Virus record (IMG/VR): IMGVR_UViG_3300007747_000100
Source of the DNA: a virus
Taxonomy: Duplodnaviria > Heunggongvirae > Uroviricota > Caudoviricetes
Strand: one strand, 5' to 3'
Length of the DNA: 6,621 bases
The translations under genes were made by a program, and so were the position numbers. The notes under the pieces are model-generated. The model was not told the DNA's origin and searched no databases. It saw only the letters and a program-made list of their open reading frames with translations. This document shows, one piece after another, positions 1,141 through 6,621 of this stretch. The stretch's first letter is position 1. Every line of letters starts with the position of its first letter.

Positions 1141-1331
1141 TTTTCACCCCCAAGAATTACCAGCTCTGCACGGGCATCGTTAACCAAAGATGAGCACGCT
1201 TTAATCGCATCCACGACATCAGTAGCGTCCATTTCTTCAGCCGAAAGACTGACAGCAACCAGGACAGCCGCTGCTTGCTCGATTAATTGAAGTGCGGACG
1301 TAAGGCGAGGGGTATTAATTGAGTTATTCAT
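1137..1331 (-). CDS. small hypothetical protein, 64 aa
   Basis: Track ORF; ATG 1331..1329 overlaps the stop of the 72-aa gene (ATGAATAA); G-rich tract about 8 nt upstream; stop TGA 1139..1137. Confidence 0.55.
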   Translation of the reverse strand: MNNSINTPRLTSALQLIEQAAAVLVAVSLSAEEMDATDVVDAIKACSSLVNDARAELVILGGEK

Positions 1332-1542
1332 TGGTTGCCCCCGTTTTTACTGGCATTTCGCCACCTTCCAGCAGGAAATGAACGTCACGAACGGCGAGAT
1401 CCAATATCGCGAGTAACGCCTTCAGTCTTTCGTCTCGTGAGGGAGAGTTGCTCACCAGAATGTCGTTAATCACTTCTGTCAGTGTGATGATCTGGCTTGT
1501 GCGTTCGAGGGGATCCATATGCACATCGTAGTTTTTAATCAT
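1324..1542 (-). CDS. small hypothetical protein, 72 aa (C-terminal segment of the 344-aa track ORF, with its own start)
   Basis: In-frame ATG at 1542..1540 preceded by GGAGG (6-nt spacer) and overlapping the TAA of the 1535..1729 ORF (ATGATTAA). Product MIKNYDVHMDPLERTSQ... has normal mixed composition. Stop TAA 1326..1324. Confidence 0.55.
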   Translation of the reverse strand: MIKNYDVHMDPLERTSQIITLTEVINDILVSNSPSRDERLKALLAILDLAVRDVHFLLEGGEMPVKTGATNE

Positions 1543-1729
1543 GTGCCACCTCCATGCGGATACGACCAGCAAAAAAGCAGATGTGATCGCGCACCAGAGA
1601 ACGGCGAGCATCGCGTTCAGACTCGGCAGCAATATGATGAATTTTGGCGGTAATTGTCGGGCAATCGCGGCGAACTGCGGCGATAATCCAGATAAATTGC
1701 GTTTTTTGGGTAGGGGTAGTAGCCAGCAT
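1535..1729 (-). CDS. small hypothetical protein, 64 aa
   Basis: ATG 1729..1727 preceded by a perfect AAGGAGG with 7-nt spacer. Balanced composition (MLATTPTQKTQFIWIIAAVRRDCPTITAKIHHIAAESERDARR...), whereas the alternative frame (the 344-aa track ORF) over the same bases is Leu/Pro/Ala-rich with no acidic residues. Stop TAA overlaps the next start. Confidence 0.55.
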   Translation of the reverse strand: MLATTPTQKTQFIWIIAAVRRDCPTITAKIHHIAAESERDARRSLVRDHICFFAGRIRMEVAHD

Positions 1730-2358
1730 GTGGCAGCCTCCTTCAGATAGCAGGTTACGCTACCACCGGAAACGCCAATTTCGCTGGTGGTAGCCCAGAC
1801 AGGGTTGGCGTAACCGGCTCTGAAGGATACCGGCGCTTCCGAAGAAGCCCCCGCCTGAGCCACCATTGATTGACAAAGGCGCTGGATTATACACCAACGC
1901 CCAAAAAATGGGTGAGTCAGACCTACGACATAAAAAAAGACGCTCGGCGCGTCATATGTCGCCTTCAGAATTTTCAGGACGCCAATCCCGGCACCCGTTT
2001 TATGAGGTGCCTTATAACCATAAACCGTGTTGCCGCATAACGGCAAGCTCTTTTTTATGGACTCCGAAAACTCACTATTGGAAGTAACGTCACGCGCGTG
2101 GACGAAGGTTTTTGTGGAGTCACTACACGAGCAGAGAAAGCCATCTACGACCAGAAATTCTCTGGCATAGCCGCTGACCTTCTCAACGCTAACACCATCG
2201 ACCGTAATTTCTGACATAGTTAAGGCATCCGCTCCTACCACCAGCAAATGATAAACTTTGCTTGTATCTGCTGTATTAATGTCTGACTTTGCTGTCATAT
2301 TGCTGGATTTTGGCGACATACCAGCCAGTGAAAATGTCTTCTTCTGGACGGGTATCAT
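1730..2358 (-). CDS. hypothetical protein, 5' portion of the 344-aa track ORF; 3' end unresolved (possible frameshift/pseudogene or genuine overlap)
   Basis: ATG 2358..2356 overlaps the stop of the 59-aa ORF (ATGA), GGAGG with 7-nt spacer upstream. The frame stays open to 1324, but downstream of about 1730 the evidence favours two separate small genes. The other two minus frames have stops at 1765..1763 and 1757..1755, just upstream of the next gene's RBS. Contains terminator-like hairpins on both strands. Confidence 0.35.
1932..1953 (-). terminator. terminator-like hairpin plus T-run on the minus strand, inside the long ORF
   Basis: On the minus strand: GACGC / GCGTC stem (1939-1953 in plus coordinates) with a 5-nt loop, followed by seven T (plus-strand A-run 1932-1938). 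The same bases encode ...[10 protein letters not shown] in the ORF frame. Confidence 0.3.
2030..2056 (+). terminator. terminator-like hairpin plus T-run on the plus strand, inside the long minus-strand ORF
   Basis: Stem TTGCCG (2030-2035) / CGGCAA (2041-2046), loop CATAA, then GCTC and TTTTTT (2051-2056). Confidence 0.35.
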
Positions 2359-2534
2359 TGGTTAACCTCCGCGAACTCCTTCATGAAACGCGCCAGCGGT
2401 TGTACGCATGGCGATTGATACCCGTCGCGATAAAACGTCACTCGGTTGTGAGACACGCTTTCGACAGTAACGAGTGCTCCGTGGGCATCTTTGTAGCGTT
2501 TTTGTGGTTGTGGTATTCCTGTTGGCTTAGACAT
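2355..2534 (-). CDS. small hypothetical protein, 59 aa (trimmed from track ORF 2355..2621)
   Basis: Internal ATG at 2534..2532 preceded by GGAGG (6-nt spacer) and overlapping the TAA of the AntA-like gene by 8 nt. The track's longer N-terminal extension would lie out of frame inside that gene. Stop TGA 2357..2355. Confidence 0.5.
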   Translation of the reverse strand: MSKPTGIPQPQKRYKDAHGALVTVESVSHNRVTFYRDGYQSPCVQPLARFMKEFAEVNQ

Positions 2535-3360
2535 TGAGCGCCTCCAGACGCTTGGCGAGCCAGCGTTGCGACAGGTGGGTGAGTTCTCCTTTGCGCTGCT
2601 CATATTCCATGCCCATATCAATTAACGTGATATTGGTGCTTTCGAGATATGAGAGGTGCTCAAGCTGTTCTGCGTTCATATGGTCGCGAGGTTCGCCAGA
2701 ATAGCCATTTATCCGCGCCCACTGCTTAGCAGTTAGCCCACCAAGAACGATACGAGAAATCATATTGCTCTCGTTTGTGTAGTGGTGTTGCTGCGTCGTT
2801 TTCCCCTGCTCGGCACGGGCCATGTTCAGCGCATCGCACATTGGCTTAAAGTTGTTTGCGGCACTGATACGGGCTTTTAGCTGGCGACGATAGCGGGCGG
2901 CGATTTCAGGCACGGTACGCTGTAATTCTTCCTCGCACTGGATGAAATAACGACGGATAGCGCGACCCTGATCATTGCGTTCGATCATTGCCAGTTCTTT
3001 CGCCATTCCGACACTTAACAGATAGTCTTTGCCGGGTCTGCCAGAGTGCTTAATCTTGCTGTAAGCCGCGCCATTCGGGCTTTTCCCCAAATTTGGGGAA
3101 ATTGTTTTATGGACTGAGTAATCGTGCCCAATGGTGAAGTCATATTCAGAGATGCGATCAGTGATCCATGTAGAGAAGTCTTTTCCCACGCCCAACGCTT
3201 TGTGTAACGCTTTTGCGCTAACAATATTGGTTTCACGCCCACCTATATGACCAGAAATAACCGGGACAATTGCGGCAAATTCATTACCGTTAATTGTGCC
3301 CAGAGAGGCGTTCAGATGAGGGGCGGCCTCAGAAATTAATCTGCTTTTTTCGATGTTCAT
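2527..3360 (-). CDS. putative phage antirepressor-like protein (AntA-type N-terminal domain), 277 aa
   Basis: Track ORF; ATG 3360 with GGAG (7-nt spacer). The N-terminal region (...NIVSAKALHKALGVGKDFSTWITDRISEYDFTIGHDY...) resembles the AntA/antirepressor domain as I recall it; this is a family-level call from memory, not a search result. Confidence 0.6.
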   Translation of the reverse strand: MNIEKSRLISEAAPHLNASLGTINGNEFAAIVPVISGHIGGRETNIVSAKALHKALGVGKDFSTWITDRISEYDFTIGHDYSVHKTISPNLGKSPNGAAYSKIKHSGRPGKDYLLSVGMAKELAMIERNDQGRAIRRYFIQCEEELQRTVPEIAARYRRQLKARISAANNFKPMCDALNMARAEQGKTTQQHHYTNESNMISRIVLGGLTAKQWARINGYSGEPRDHMNAEQLEHLSYLESTNITLIDMGMEYEQRKGELTHLSQRWLAKRLEALNV

Positions 3361-3720: not shown

Positions 3721-3939
3721 TCAGGCCACCTTCCCGCGGCGTTCTGCCAGCCAGTTATTAATTTCCACCGCATCAAACGCAGTCACGTTATCTGTTAGCT
3801 TCACTGGGCGTGGAAGAGTGCCATTTTTAACCCATCTATCAATAGTAGGCAGTGAAACACCTAGCAATTCCGGCATGCGAAAGCGACGGATGTATCCAGT
3901 TGTTGGGATAGCTGATGATGCTGGCTTGTGTGCTGTCAT
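3721..3939 (-). CDS. alpA: AlpA/Vis-family phage transcriptional regulator / excisionase-like HTH protein, 72 aa (start uncertain)
   Basis: Segment RMPELLGVSLPTIDRWVKNGTLPRPVKL matches the characteristic AlpA-family helix-turn-helix pattern (recalled family knowledge, so the symbol is family-level). The ATG at 3939 has only a weak SD and the 5' end carries TGATAGCT-type motifs, so the true start could be further downstream (e.g. Met22). Confidence 0.75.
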   Translation of the reverse strand: MTAHKPASSAIPTTGYIRRFRMPELLGVSLPTIDRWVKNGTLPRPVKLTDNVTAFDAVEINNWLAERRGKVA

Positions 3940-3956
3940 ATCTCTAGTAACCTCTC

Positions 3957-3969
3957 TGATAGCTCATGA
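3957..3969 (+). repeat. 13-mer TGATAGCTCATGA, copy 1 (alpA leader / 5' end)
   Basis: Exact 13-bp match to 6435-6447; contains the recurrent oriented 8-mer TGATAGCT. Confidence 0.5.
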
Positions 3970-4020
3970 AGTTACTTAAAGTTTAGTGGTTGCCCATACA
4001 GTATTTCTATTAAGACTAGA

Positions 4021-4052
4021 ATCTATTGAAAGAAATTATAAATCTATTGAAA
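4021..4052. promoter_or_regulatory. operator-like direct repeats ATCTATTGAAA (x2, 21 bp apart) flanking a minus-strand TATAAT; candidate promoter/operator of the alpA operon
   Basis: ATCTATTGAAA at 4021-4031 and 4042-4052. Between them the minus strand reads TATAAT (plus coordinates 4035-4040). No convincing -35 found; the A/T-rich upstream could act as an UP element. About 95 nt upstream of the alpA ATG. Confidence 0.3.
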
Positions 4053-4230
4053 AAATACCGATCCACTGAAAGATTGCAAATACAGGTGGGATAATTATTT
4101 TCTTTATTTTCAATTAGTTACCAGTTTAAAAAATCATTGTTTTATCAAAGAGTTATATCTTTCATCGTCATTCATCATGTTTTTACATTTCTTTTTATCT
4201 TTTATTATTCAATTGGTTGAGTCGGTTTAT

Positions 4231-4270
4231 AATGGCTCATGATGGCTTAAAATGGCTAATGATAGCTGGC
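4231..4270 (+). repeat. four tandem 10-bp repeats (aATGGCTcat / gATGGCTtaa / aATGGCTaat / gATAGCTggc), helically phased
   Basis: Direct reading: core (A/G)AT(G/A)GCT begins at 4231, 4241, 4251 and 4261, exactly 10 bp apart, in the AT-rich region between the 216-aa gene and alpA. Confidence 0.6.
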
Positions 4271-4410
4271 GTATCTTTTAGAGATGGGGTGATTACAGAT
4301 GAACTAAGCCGAACAGATATAGCAATGGCTAGGCATAGAATTATCTATGCTGGTGGAGATGGGTAAACAGGTAATGCCCCGCCATTGCTTTGGAGGGGCG
4401 TGAAAAGTGA

Positions 4411-5061
4411 TTAGTCGAGATCGTGGACAGCTAATAAAGCCCGTGAGATTTTTTCTAGGAATGTGGCTTTTGCTATTCCTTTATGGGATATCCCTTCATC
4501 CTTGATTAAGGTTTCTATGTCACGGTATATAGCTGTGCGATTAGGTTTCCCATTTTGGATGTAGGAAGATGAGCCTGATTTTTTTATCAGCAGATGTACT
4601 ATCAACCCCATCATTTTCATTGTCCCGTTTTCCTCATCCTGCTTTCTATGCTGCCCACGTCCGCTGCGGTTGGTTTCTTTGATGTAGTTTACTAACTGGA
4701 GTCCTCCAAGGTTTCGGGCTTTTTCTTCCCAGCCCTTGGTGCCACGCAAATCATCAATCGCTTCTGATATTTTCTGAACAATTATTTCTGGTGTATTTGT
4801 GTCAATAAATGGGTAAGAAGCTAAGAAAATATCAAGGGCATGGCAAGGCTCGTCTTTACTAGTTTTTTCACCTCTGTACACCTTGATAGCTCTGGCAAGA
4901 TGAGTTCTGACAAAATCGACATATTCGAAATTTTCCTCAGGCACATCGCTAATGCGCATAGATGGGTTTAGGCCAGCCAAGGCCACAGCCATTTCATGAG
5001 GGGTAATCGATACAGATGAACAAAGCCGTTCGATTGGCGATTTTCTCAAGATGTTGTTCAC
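4411..5061 (-). CDS. hypothetical protein, 216 aa, unknown function; integrase-coupled accessory gene
   Basis: GTG start 5061..5059 overlaps the integrase stop (GTGA) and is preceded by GGAGG with a 5-nt spacer. Long open frame, and visibly more AT-rich than the integrase gene by eye. No conserved motif recognised (no Walker A, no clear transmembrane segment). Confidence 0.7.
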   Translation of the reverse strand: MNNILRKSPIERLCSSVSITPHEMAVALAGLNPSMRISDVPEENFEYVDFVRTHLARAIKVYRGEKTSKDEPCHALDIFLASYPFIDTNTPEIIVQKISEAIDDLRGTKGWEEKARNLGGLQLVNYIKETNRSGRGQHRKQDEENGTMKMMGLIVHLLIKKSGSSSYIQNGKPNRTAIYRDIETLIKDEGISHKGIAKATFLEKISRALLAVHDLD

Positions 5062-6326
5062 ATTTGCCTCCGGGCTTTATCGAATGGCGTTACGTTGTAG
5101 TCTTTCCCGCTTTCCAGTGCCACCAGCAGATCAGCCCACTGTGCCAGCGCAGCTTTACGCTCATCAAAATACTGATGGCGGTTATAAATCCCCTCCACAC
5201 CCTTAATGCGATGATTGAGGCATCGTTCCGCTACGACAGGATCAACACCCAATGCTGCTAAATGAGTACGTGCGGTACGCCGGAAGTCGTGAATCGTGAA
5301 ATTAGGCACATCCGGCATTTCGGCGCGAACCTTAGCCAGTGCTACGGGTAAAGTGCTTTCCTGAATATGTGGGATCATTCTGTTTTGCATCTTCCTGGCT
5401 GGAAGCACCCATGCGCTATTACATGAAAAGGTGTGTAGCTCTCTCAACCATTCAACGGCTGGGGAAGGTAGAGGTATATCAATAGGGTCTCCGTTTTTGC
5501 TGCGTTCTTCCGGCAAATGCCATACCGCACCATCTAAATCAAACTCTTCCCATCGTGCGGCGCATAACTCCATCTTACGAACGCATAGTGCCAGCAATAG
5601 CTTAAATGTCAGTTCGTTCTGGCGGCTGAATCCTTTTGCGGTGCGCATAGCCTCGAATAGCCTGATAAGCTCATCGCGAGTTAGCCAACGGTCGCGGGAA
5701 ACCTCTTTACCACCAGCATCAGATACTTCAAACGCTGAACAAGGGTTTATCTCCAGAGCGTGGCGTTTTATCCCATAGTCAAAGATACGGCGTGCCCAGC
5801 GTAATACATCTGTTGCTATCGTTGGTGCTCCTCGGTCAACGATACCTTTCAACATGTCGTCAATGTGGCGTGGCTTAACGTCCTCTACCTTCATATGCCC
5901 AATGCAGGGGTTAATATCCTTATCAATTCTCCGGCGAAGGATATCGGGATGTTTCCATCTCGGAAGTATCTGGCGCTCGAAGTATTCGGAGGCCAGATCT
6001 GAAACACGCATGGCGTTTTTCTCAGCCTCCATTTTTGCCAGTGCTTCAGCTTTTCGTTCCTGTTTCTCTGCTGCTACGTCATAGCCAAGAGCAACTCTGG
6101 CTGACAGCTCTTTTGCTGTTTCTCTGGCTTTTGATAGTGACAGTTCGGAGTAAGAGCCTATAACCATAGCCCGCTGCTTTCCTGCGAGCTTATAGCGGAA
6201 TCGCCAGAACGGGACTGTGTAGTTTTTGGGGTAGCAAATATAAAGGCCGTTGCCGTCTGCCTTGCCATCAAATCTGTCTCCCGCCTTTATCCATGCGCGG
6301 ATCTGCATATCTGTGAGTTTTGGCAT
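5058..6326 (-). CDS. int: tyrosine site-specific integrase, P4-like family (about 422 aa)
   Basis: N-terminus MPKLTDMQIRAWIKAG...DGNGLYI matches the arm-binding N-terminal domain typical of P4-type integrases. The C-terminal region has the tyrosine-recombinase hallmarks (HDFRRTARTH; GIYNRHQY with the presumed catalytic Tyr). Start trimmed from the track's 6410 to the ATG at 6326..6324. Confidence 0.9.
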   Translation of the reverse strand: MPKLTDMQIRAWIKAGDRFDGKADGNGLYICYPKNYTVPFWRFRYKLAGKQRAMVIGSYSELSLSKARETAKELSARVALGYDVAAEKQERKAEALAKMEAEKNAMRVSDLASEYFERQILPRWKHPDILRRRIDKDINPCIGHMKVEDVKPRHIDDMLKGIVDRGAPTIATDVLRWARRIFDYGIKRHALEINPCSAFEVSDAGGKEVSRDRWLTRDELIRLFEAMRTAKGFSRQNELTFKLLLALCVRKMELCAARWEEFDLDGAVWHLPEERSKNGDPIDIPLPSPAVEWLRELHTFSCNSAWVLPARKMQNRMIPHIQESTLPVALAKVRAEMPDVPNFTIHDFRRTARTHLAALGVDPVVAERCLNHRIKGVEGIYNRHQYFDERKAALAQWADLLVALESGKDYNVTPFDKARRQM

Positions 6327-6355
6327 TGCGAATACCTGAATATCGAATATGGGGG

Positions 6356-6405
6356 TGTACATAAAGCAATGTACATGAAAGTCATTATGTACACCTCTAT
6401 GTACA
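6356..6405. promoter_or_regulatory. four TGTACA hexamers immediately upstream of the integrase start (candidate regulator or arm-type binding sites)
   Basis: TGTACA at 6356-6361, 6370-6375, 6388-6393 and 6400-6405, mostly in the context ATGTACA(C/T), within 80 bp upstream of the int ATG at 6326. Confidence 0.45.
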
Positions 6406-6434
6406 CGCATATTGTGCGCTTTGTTGCGTTGTTA

Positions 6435-6447: not shown

Positions 6448-6451
6448 TAAC

Positions 6452-6488
6452 AAAAAAGCCCGACATTTCGCGGGCTTTGTGGTTTTTT
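6452..6488. terminator. bidirectional rho-independent terminator
   Basis: GC-rich stem GCCCG (6458-6462) / CGGGC (6471-6475), extendable to AAAGCCCG/CGGGCTTT, with an 8-nt loop. It is flanked by an A-run (6452-6457) and a T-run (6483-6488), so it reads as hairpin plus U-tract on either strand. Confidence 0.6.
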
Positions 6489-6514
6489 GCTGCTTGGTGA
6501 TTTTTACTGATAGC

Positions 6515-6621
6515 TTATTCGATATTCTGAATCTGCTCGCGCATCTGCTCAATCAACACTTTCAGCTCGATGGCAGAATTCGTCACTTCGGCATTGATAG
6601 ATTTCGAAGCAAGAGTGTTCG
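6515..6621 (-). CDS. 3' end of an unidentified, presumably chromosomal gene (partial)
   Basis: Minus-strand frame open from the window edge to TAA at 6517..6515 (C-terminus ...INAEVTNSAIELKVLIEQMREQIQNIE), followed downstream by the hairpin terminator. Product not recognised. Confidence 0.5.
   Translation of the reverse strand, partial: NTLASKSINAEVTNSAIELKVLIEQMREQIQNIE

Follow-up and report, generated by a model that had tools for sequence, protein, structure and literature searches.

How can the same DNA be annotated as one protein in one genome and as a broken gene followed by small separate genes in another? The question is posed by positions 1324..2358, minus strand, of a 6,621-nucleotide (nt) stretch of DNA from a virus assigned to the Caudoviricetes (IMG/VR record IMGVR_UViG_3300007747_000100; the whole stretch is called the window below), where an open reading frame (ORF) runs for 344 codons. 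The Prokaryotic Genome Annotation Pipeline (PGAP) renders the same DNA in RefSeq strain PA45B as a single 355-amino-acid (aa) 'ash family protein', whereas strains ET120 and G749 carry a truncated ash pseudogene and a 64-aa 'host cell division inhibitor Icd-like protein', to which the annotation of G749 adds a 72-aa hypothetical protein. An initial annotation, made from the letters of the window, had taken the ORF to be a composite and offered three ways in which it could have arisen, namely a frameshift mutation or sequencing error in an upstream gene, a genuine overlapping gene, or programmed frameshifting. Here, we argue from related loci and from phage P4 that this is likely to be the immunity and early-control region of a P4-like satellite, with the 344-codon ORF as its eta-type read-through frame; of the three options, a genuine overlapping gene proves nearest the truth and the evidence goes against the other two.

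The comparison drew on 18 species-representative genomes, 80 viral contigs, three E. coli loci and phage P4, from which 87 unique loci were retained, these being the ones in which isrK, C4 and icd were all mapped. The order isrK-C4-icd holds in 18/18 genome loci and in P4, and the arrangement of frames in the window is neither chance nor private to it: at least 479 complete E. coli genomes share it, as do 54 of the 87 unique related loci, which represent many genera. In the window, the region comprises the following features.

1324..2358, minus strand: long read-through ORF of 344 codons, the likely counterpart of P4 eta
2047..2358, minus strand: U, the upstream segment of the long ORF, variable between elements
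2017..2046, minus strand: promoter-like element, with -35 TTGCCG (2046..2041), an 18-nt spacer and -10 TATGGT (2022..2017)
1933..2010, minus strand: IsrK/seqA-like leader RNA (Rfam isrK, RF01394; 67.8 bits against a gathering score of 50)
1953..1939, minus strand: hairpin of the intrinsic terminator of the IsrK-like leader, followed by a T run
1783..1870, minus strand: C4/CI-type antisense immunity RNA (Rfam RF01695; 79.9 bits against a gathering score of 45, full length)
1535..1729, minus strand: icd/kil-like gene, 64 aa, in frame -1 relative to the long ORF
1324..1542, minus strand: gene D, 72 aa, in the frame of the long ORF, with the Shine-Dalgarno sequence GGAGG at 1553..1549

The long ORF is present as initially described, with an ATG at 2358 and, 7 nt 5' of it, GGAGG at 2370..2366. 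Its composite nature is also borne out, since two separate genes, two RNA genes and a promoter-like element all lie within it; the promoter-like element and the IsrK/seqA-like and C4/CI-like RNA genes, which fill the middle of the ORF, had gone unnoticed. Both RNA matches come from an Rfam scan of the window in which only matches above the gathering score were accepted, and both are on the ORF's own strand. The promoter-like element is kept in 85 loci and, on alignment, coincides with the place of P4 P_LE, yet it falls below the threshold of a consensus scan; transcription from it would be predicted to start near 2010.

The 64-aa gene is real and separately initiated, as had been proposed. Its Shine-Dalgarno sequence AAGGAGG (1743..1737) lies 7 nt 5' of its ATG, its product matches the NCBIfam Icd-like model NF033153 at 70.3 bits against a cut-off of 25, and the ratio of non-synonymous to synonymous polymorphism (pN/pS) in its own frame, computed on a motif-anchored core of 52 codons, is 0.31 among loci that share the frame arrangement of the window and 0.27 among those that share that of P4 (classes 1 and 0, defined below). 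It is, as predicted from these features, an Icd/Kil-like cell-division inhibitor. The last 72 codons of the long frame likewise have a start of their own, as claimed: the ATG of D (1542..1540) overlaps the icd stop (CATGATTAA), and homologues of D occur in 31 loci at identities down to 37%, with the ATGNTTAA overlap in every case. D is a real gene; it has no family match in Pfam, and no antirepressor was found downstream of icd. The predicted separately expressed units of the region are thus the IsrK/seqA-like leader, the C4/CI RNA, Icd and D.

The C4 RNA has two recognition segments with matching targets, placed in the window as follows.

1827..1819, minus strand: C4 loop segment b', UCCUUCAGA
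1811..1805, minus strand: C4 single-stranded segment a', ACGCCAA
1985..1979, minus strand: target a1, TTGGCGT, inside isrK and complementary to a'
1969..1962, minus strand: target b1, TCTGAAGG, inside isrK and complementary to b'
1737..1778, minus strand: the downstream targets a2 and b2, equivalent to seqC
1778..1772, minus strand: target a2, TTGGCGT, complementary to a'
1747..1739, minus strand: target b2, TCTGAAGGA, complementary to b' and overlapping the icd Shine-Dalgarno sequence AAGGAGG

Segments and targets co-vary, with 11 types of a and 24 types of loop across 86 loci. Within each locus a' is the exact 7-nt complement of a2 (86/86) and of a1 (84/84), and b' is complementary to b2 over at least 8 nt in 85 of 86 loci and to b1 over at least 7 nt in 60 of 84, whereas a cross-locus control averages a pairing of about 3.9 nt; set against that control, own-locus pairing supports the RNA system solidly. 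As a separate observation, the C4 loop no longer matches b1 (5 nt or fewer complementary) in 24 of the 84 loci, b2 being kept in all loci but one, and the upstream target seems to need the a-site alone in many elements.

What, then, holds 344 codons open across this composite? A frame fixed relative to C4 is stop-free through isrK and C4 in 87/87 loci, and upstream it runs on into ten unrelated families of U, all of them fused in the C4 frame. The isrK-to-C4 spacings fall into six classes (98, 101, 125, 128, 140 and 185 nt) and are congruent to 2 modulo 3 in 84 of 85 loci; the sole exception, locus L086, has a spacing of 139 (1 modulo 3), is the only one with a broken long ORF, open from -222, and looks like a decayed copy. 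At its other end the frame opens with a start codon that overlaps the stop of an upstream ORF in 82 of the 87 loci.

Downstream of C4 the loci divide into two classes according to the phase in which the long frame reaches icd. Class 0 (33 loci, P4 among them) has C4 starting -139, -142 or -145 from the icd ATG, so that the long frame is the icd frame, and class 1 (54 loci, including the window) has it starting at -138, -141 or -144, so that the long frame is +1 to icd; in the window the start is at -141, as against -142. The one-nucleotide differences between the classes sit in the spacer between the icd Shine-Dalgarno sequence and its ATG (GCCGCTATG against GCCACATG in P4-type loci), and on the icd tree members of the two classes are mixed, parsimony requiring at least 12 switches. 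The gene that follows icd lies in frame +1 in 51 of the 54 class-1 loci, where the long ORF merges into it and ends at +361 to +1057; the long ORF of the remaining three loci ends just past icd.

Evidence that the long frame is itself under selection comes from icd, which class 1 must cross out of frame. The +1 frame passes through icd without a stop in 54/54 class-1 loci and in 7/33 class-0 loci (Fisher p = 4e-16), while the +2 frame, taken as a control, does so in 2/54 and 2/33; counted by unique Icd proteins, the +1 frame is stop-free in 37/37 and 7/32, respectively. When Icd is recoded synonymously, an open +1 frame arises with P = 0.04-0.15. The avoidance can be seen at single codons: at icd codons 15-16, class 0 often has TTA-ATC, which yields TAA in the +1 frame, and the class-1 locus with Leu-Ile at that place uses CTT-ATC.

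These counts bear directly on a sceptical explanation, that the long ORF is a gene-calling artefact, conserved RNAs and shared ancestry leaving stop-free a frame that is never translated. No segment besides icd and D shows amino-acid constraint, the product has no confident fold, PGAP itself splits the same DNA in some genomes and the Phage_ASH family, the only one that Pfam finds in the ORF, maps exactly onto the RNA stretch, all of which an artefact would explain. It would not lead one to expect, however, that stops in the +1 frame over icd are avoided only where that frame continues the long ORF, that six different spacing classes all preserve the frame, that ten unrelated U families are fused in the same frame, or that the start is coupled to the upstream gene in nearly every locus. 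P4 eta, moreover, is reported as translated and functional in PMC10111431, citing Forti 1999. We judge the artefact unlikely. A simpler variant, in which the 'Ash' frame is spurious translation of RNA genes, was dropped, the frame being open in every locus with phase-preserving spacings.

If the frame is translated, is it the protein that matters? Databases hold hundreds of 'ash family proteins' of 320-355 aa with PF10554 (Phage_ASH) as sole domain, and the same family is the only Pfam match of the long ORF here (aa 113-221; 117.2 bits, with a cut-off of 26). The match corresponds to nt 2022..1696, a stretch made up of the -10 hexamer, isrK, the spacer, C4, a2/b2 and the first icd codons. Such full-length homologues, together with the strength of the PF10554 match, the labelling of PHROG families as transcriptional regulators, the in-frame fusion of real domains (Rha, AntA) in other elements and a pN/pS of 0.51 for U in the window's own family, would favour a functional protein of about 344 aa, an 'Ash family' (Bro-network) regulator with the RNA genes merely embedded in its gene. 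We nevertheless consider this very unlikely, since pN/pS over the Ash stretch is about 1 and alike in all three frames, and the C-terminal continuation depends on the frame class and on the following gene, with ORF ends varying from +196 to +1057. Structure prediction points the same way: AlphaFold, given a 30-sequence alignment, returned no usable model (mean predicted local distance difference test score, pLDDT, 35; predicted template modelling score, pTM, 0.20). The Ash stretch thus has neither protein-level constraint by pN/pS nor a confident fold, its pLDDT being 44-57 at best; U scores about 25, the out-of-frame icd stretch about 30, and the best-predicted part of the model is the tail encoded by D, at 52-65.

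The PHROG 'repressor' families match the long frame and then icd, consecutively, and their labels most likely trace to the 1990 annotation of a P4 'cI protein' over the CI RNA. Indeed, in P4 (locus L022) PF10554 matches that obsolete 'cI protein' coding sequence (8168..8584), while P4 epsilon (7888..8175) matches PF25738 instead. PMC8628076 uses PF10554 as a marker for P4 epsilon/'Ash' in P4-like satellites, equating epsilon with 'Ash'; on this evidence the family works as a marker but would be detecting the CI-RNA immunity region, and the pattern suggests that Pfam Phage_ASH largely reflects translated RNA genes.

Contiguous orthologues of about 344 aa, which the initial annotation had thought would overturn a composite, therefore do exist at the level of ORFs, and the composite reading stands all the same, because what is conserved in them is the open frame, not the protein. 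The long frame has a pN/pS of 0.86-1.41 over isrK, the spacer, C4 and a2/b2, not below that of the other two frames, and of 1.81 over icd, against 1.61 where that frame is unused. For U, the window's own family gives 0.51 against 0.66 and 1.36 in the shifted frames, and a 52-member family 0.85 against 0.89 and 0.94. U was considered as a protein domain and not established as one: its distant similarity falls to E ~0.006 once the promoter stretch is left out, and the pN/pS signal is weak. The patterns of openness and phase, read with these ratios, indicate that selection would be keeping the long frame stop-free and in phase while its peptide is not conserved, which suggests that the function of the frame is the passage of ribosomes and not a product.

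Over 1535-1729 the peptide of the long frame (CWLLPLPKKRNLSGLSPQFAAIARQLPPKFIILLPSLNAMLAVLWCAITSAFLLVVSAWRWH) lacks both Asp and Glu, as had been remarked initially. Read in that frame, icd yields a strongly hydrophobic, membrane-helix-like stretch (FIILLPSLNAMLAVLWCAITSAFLLVVSAW) whose sequence is not conserved; its hydrophobicity probably arises from the T- and C-rich third positions of icd becoming second positions in the +1 frame.

Two further explanations were weighed. Programmed -1 frameshifting could join the upstream frame to icd in a fusion like P4 Eta, ending at the icd stop: a -1 shift from the long frame does enter the icd frame, the two are in one frame in P4 and 32 other loci, and in the window a T TTT TTG heptamer is present at +153 and icd codons 8-10 contain an A6 run. 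A slippery heptamer, however, is not conserved, being found in 19/54 loci and missing from 35/54; the recurrent heptamer is dictated by the Icd residues Phe-Phe, 12 codons before the icd stop, and the A6 run occurs in only 6/54 loci. The +1 frame is, furthermore, kept through the whole of icd, which would be needless if ribosomes left that frame. We regard such frameshifting as extremely unlikely.

A frameshift mutation or sequencing error that removed the stop of an upstream gene is, in our estimate, barely credible. It could appeal to the 1-nt difference from P4-type loci in the icd Shine-Dalgarno-to-ATG spacer and to a 33-nt deletion private to the window, but the same frames recur in the hundreds of complete E. 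coli genomes counted above and in the 54 unique loci, across several genera, an upstream gene ending before the icd ribosome-binding site was found in 0/87 relatives, and the deletion is in frame and lies elsewhere (2085|2084). The initial annotation had placed stops of the other two frames at 1765..1763 and 1757..1755, where an upstream gene might be expected to end; a TAA is indeed present at 1757..1755, but 1765..1763 reads TGG, the stop in the icd frame being TAG at 1762..1760. Upstream of these points the two frames are open for merely 63 and 43 codons, so no upstream gene ends there.

An eta-type read-through frame is best understood by comparison with phage P4. The isrK model matches P4 at 8692..8615 (60.8 bits), the element called seqA in the literature, and the C4 model at 8507..8420 (74.9 bits), the CI RNA; the equivalences of IsrK-like with seqA and of C4-like with CI RNA are stated in PMC3632133 and PMC4825925. 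P4 kil (ATG 8365, 65 aa) aligns with the 64-aa Icd-like protein at 34% identity, with AAVRR and ARR motifs conserved. An open frame of 217 codons (8821..8168) runs through seqA and CI to the kil stop, its ATG at 8767 overlapping the stop of orf88, and corresponds to eta. According to PMC10111431, the ATGA overlap joins orf88 and eta, and a constitutive promoter lies within eta (Forti et al. 1999, as summarised there), the transcript of which is terminated through interactions of CI and seqA and processed into CI. Kil is described in that text as truncated Eta, full-length Eta as made only from a late promoter that lies upstream and as coupled to the alpA homologue that precedes it, and termination as prevented by the translation of Eta.

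The window shares with P4 the element order, the same RNA models, a Kil/Icd-like first gene, the context of a P4-like island (integrase, AlpA) and a long ORF whose ATG overlaps the stop of the gene before it (ATGA) and which runs across the promoter position, seqA, CI and seqC. The features of the P4 module found here are a C4-type RNA, a leader with targets and terminator, a target overlapping the ribosome-binding site, covariation, a Kil/Icd-like gene and an eta-type ORF. The nesting of eta and kil, however, is peculiar to P4, where the two share frame and stop; in the window this same-frame nesting is absent, the long frame being +1 to icd, crossing it out of frame and sharing its stop with the 72-aa gene. 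The upstream partner also differs, being a DUF4222 gene here and an AlpA/Vis homologue in P4, as do the isrK-to-C4 spacing (140 nt, against 185 nt in P4) and the gene after icd, which, having no Pfam match, is unrelated to P4 epsilon.

By analogy with P4 (Forti 1999 as given in PMC10111431; PMC3632133; PMC4825925), the region would work as follows. In the repressed state, transcripts from the internal promoter would go untranslated and supply C4 RNA, which would pair with its targets, block the translation of icd and bring about premature termination. Once the upstream operon (alpA, antA and the DUF4222 gene) is transcribed, ribosomes would enter the long ORF by ATGA coupling at 2358 and cross promoter, leader, C4 and targets, preventing both RNA pairing and termination, with expression thereby made insensitive to immunity. 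We infer from the same source (PMC10111431) that the CI-dependent, Rho-dependent termination at t_imm would be relieved by eta translation. Particular to this lineage is the phase: the read-through frame is +1 to icd, passes over icd out of phase with it and runs on into the 72-aa gene.

Several points weigh against an eta-type read-through frame. Translation of the long ORF and the anti-termination that would follow from it are carried over from P4, by way of a secondary summary, and the internal promoter was not called by the consensus promoter scan. The loci are related and their counts not fully independent, the estimate of switches, being based on neighbour-joining, is rough and could be inflated by recombination, and pN/pS over RNA-constrained sequence is a blunt test. 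Finally, the value of 0.51 for U is a hint of constraint and may faintly suggest some N-terminal protein function. Still, with an eta-type read-through frame as the preferred interpretation, we lean slightly towards its strictest form, in which the frame would be kept for no other purpose than to carry ribosomes along, in one of two phases between which it has switched at least 12 times, shaping the choice of icd codons and delivering ribosomes to the next gene, so that Ash would be a by-product and the epsilon/Ash marker misassigned.

Related modules are known beyond P4. The immI region of phages P1 and P7 (RF01695, RF03163) likewise has a C4-type RNA with a'/b' and two sets of targets, a1/b1 and a2/b2. 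Its b2 again falls on the ribosome-binding site of icd, and its first gene encodes a small Icd-like protein; P1, however, has ant downstream of icd and coupled to it, whereas AntA in the window lies upstream of the module. The isrK-orf45-anrP locus of Salmonella Gifsy-1, described in a paper that calls IsrK a structural homologue of P4 seqA (PMC4825925), resembles the window in having an IsrK-family leader with its own terminator, read-through transcripts from which a downstream RNA is processed, and a short ORF that must be translated if the following gene is to be expressed. It differs in that IsrK activates translation of orf45/anrP in trans, that orf45 is conserved at the nucleotide but not the amino-acid level, and that no icd-like gene is described (PMC4825925).

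Two observations on other elements touch on how far the arrangement extends. A lambdoid (YmfL-type) E. coli prophage (L103) carries tandem isrK-C4 modules at 1666..1854 and 2532..2717, each inside an annotated 'Rha family' gene, and in the gene around the first module a genuine Phage_pRha domain continues the frame after the Ash stretch (aa 117-212), from which the read-through design seems general to isrK-C4 modules. A few database proteins of 461-538 aa, P0006 and P0012 among them, have AntA (PF08346) and Phage_ASH in one ORF, a sign that the read-through frame of some elements may begin with the antirepressor gene itself.

The remaining features of the window, which is a P4-like island read from the minus strand and to which relatives add a DUF5906 primase-type gene, are these.

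2084..2085: junction of an in-frame 33-nt deletion (11 codons), missing bases ACGAAATGAGCGCGATGTACTGTGCTTCTGGTT
2355..2534, minus strand: DUF4222 gene, whose own TGA (2357..2355) shares bases with the long-ORF ATG at 2358 (ATGA)
2527..3360, minus strand: AntA (antirepressor) gene, upstream of the immunity module
3721..3939, minus strand: AlpA gene
5058..6410, minus strand: integrase gene

The ATGA overlap of the DUF4222 gene and the long ORF is of the kind that indicates predicted translational coupling. Between the alpA-side operon and a divergent 216-aa ORF there is an AT-rich gap (3900..4350, GC content about 0.30), the likely position of an upstream P_LL-like promoter driving the long ORF. 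The 33 bases ACGAAATGAGCGCGATGTACTGTGCTTCTGGTT are present in all three aligned RefSeq loci, and among the best-listed matches from the 494 complete E. coli genomes with the region, which are two-piece matches spanning 134 nt, none has the deletion; the deletion is either natural, and then private, or an artefact of assembly. Its junction precedes the -35 of the internal promoter by 38 nt. Over that -35 hexamer, at 2030..2046, sits an imperfect palindrome, TTGCCGTTATGCGGCAA, which the scan scores as a terminator-like hairpin on the plus strand; it could be an operator, though its symmetry is not kept in other loci. The window contains neither a tRNA nor an attachment-site gene. Just upstream of the integrase gene, a Trp_leader-like match (6450..6561, minus strand; 22.9 bits, gathering score 41) probably represents an ordinary terminator, a GC-rich hairpin with a T run; the sub-threshold Rfam matches to Trp_leader, DdR11, CRISPR-DR10 and petD were taken as chance.

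The immunity system itself is known; its out-of-frame variant and the stop-avoidance signal are, as far as we found, not described in the literature. An eta-type read-through frame explains why PGAP gives one 355-aa 'ash family protein' in one genome and a pseudogene, icd and a hypothetical protein in another, and it indicates that most of what PF10554 and several PHROG 'repressor' families pick up is translated IsrK and C4 RNA genes, a point that concerns satellite-detection pipelines relying on PF10554 to mark P4 epsilon/Ash. For the P4 family as a whole, the 87 loci lend comparative support to the model in which translation across the immunity RNAs matters, to which they add a variant whose conduit frame runs over icd in another phase and influences icd codon usage. 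The idea of translation as an anti-immunity switch thereby becomes directly testable.

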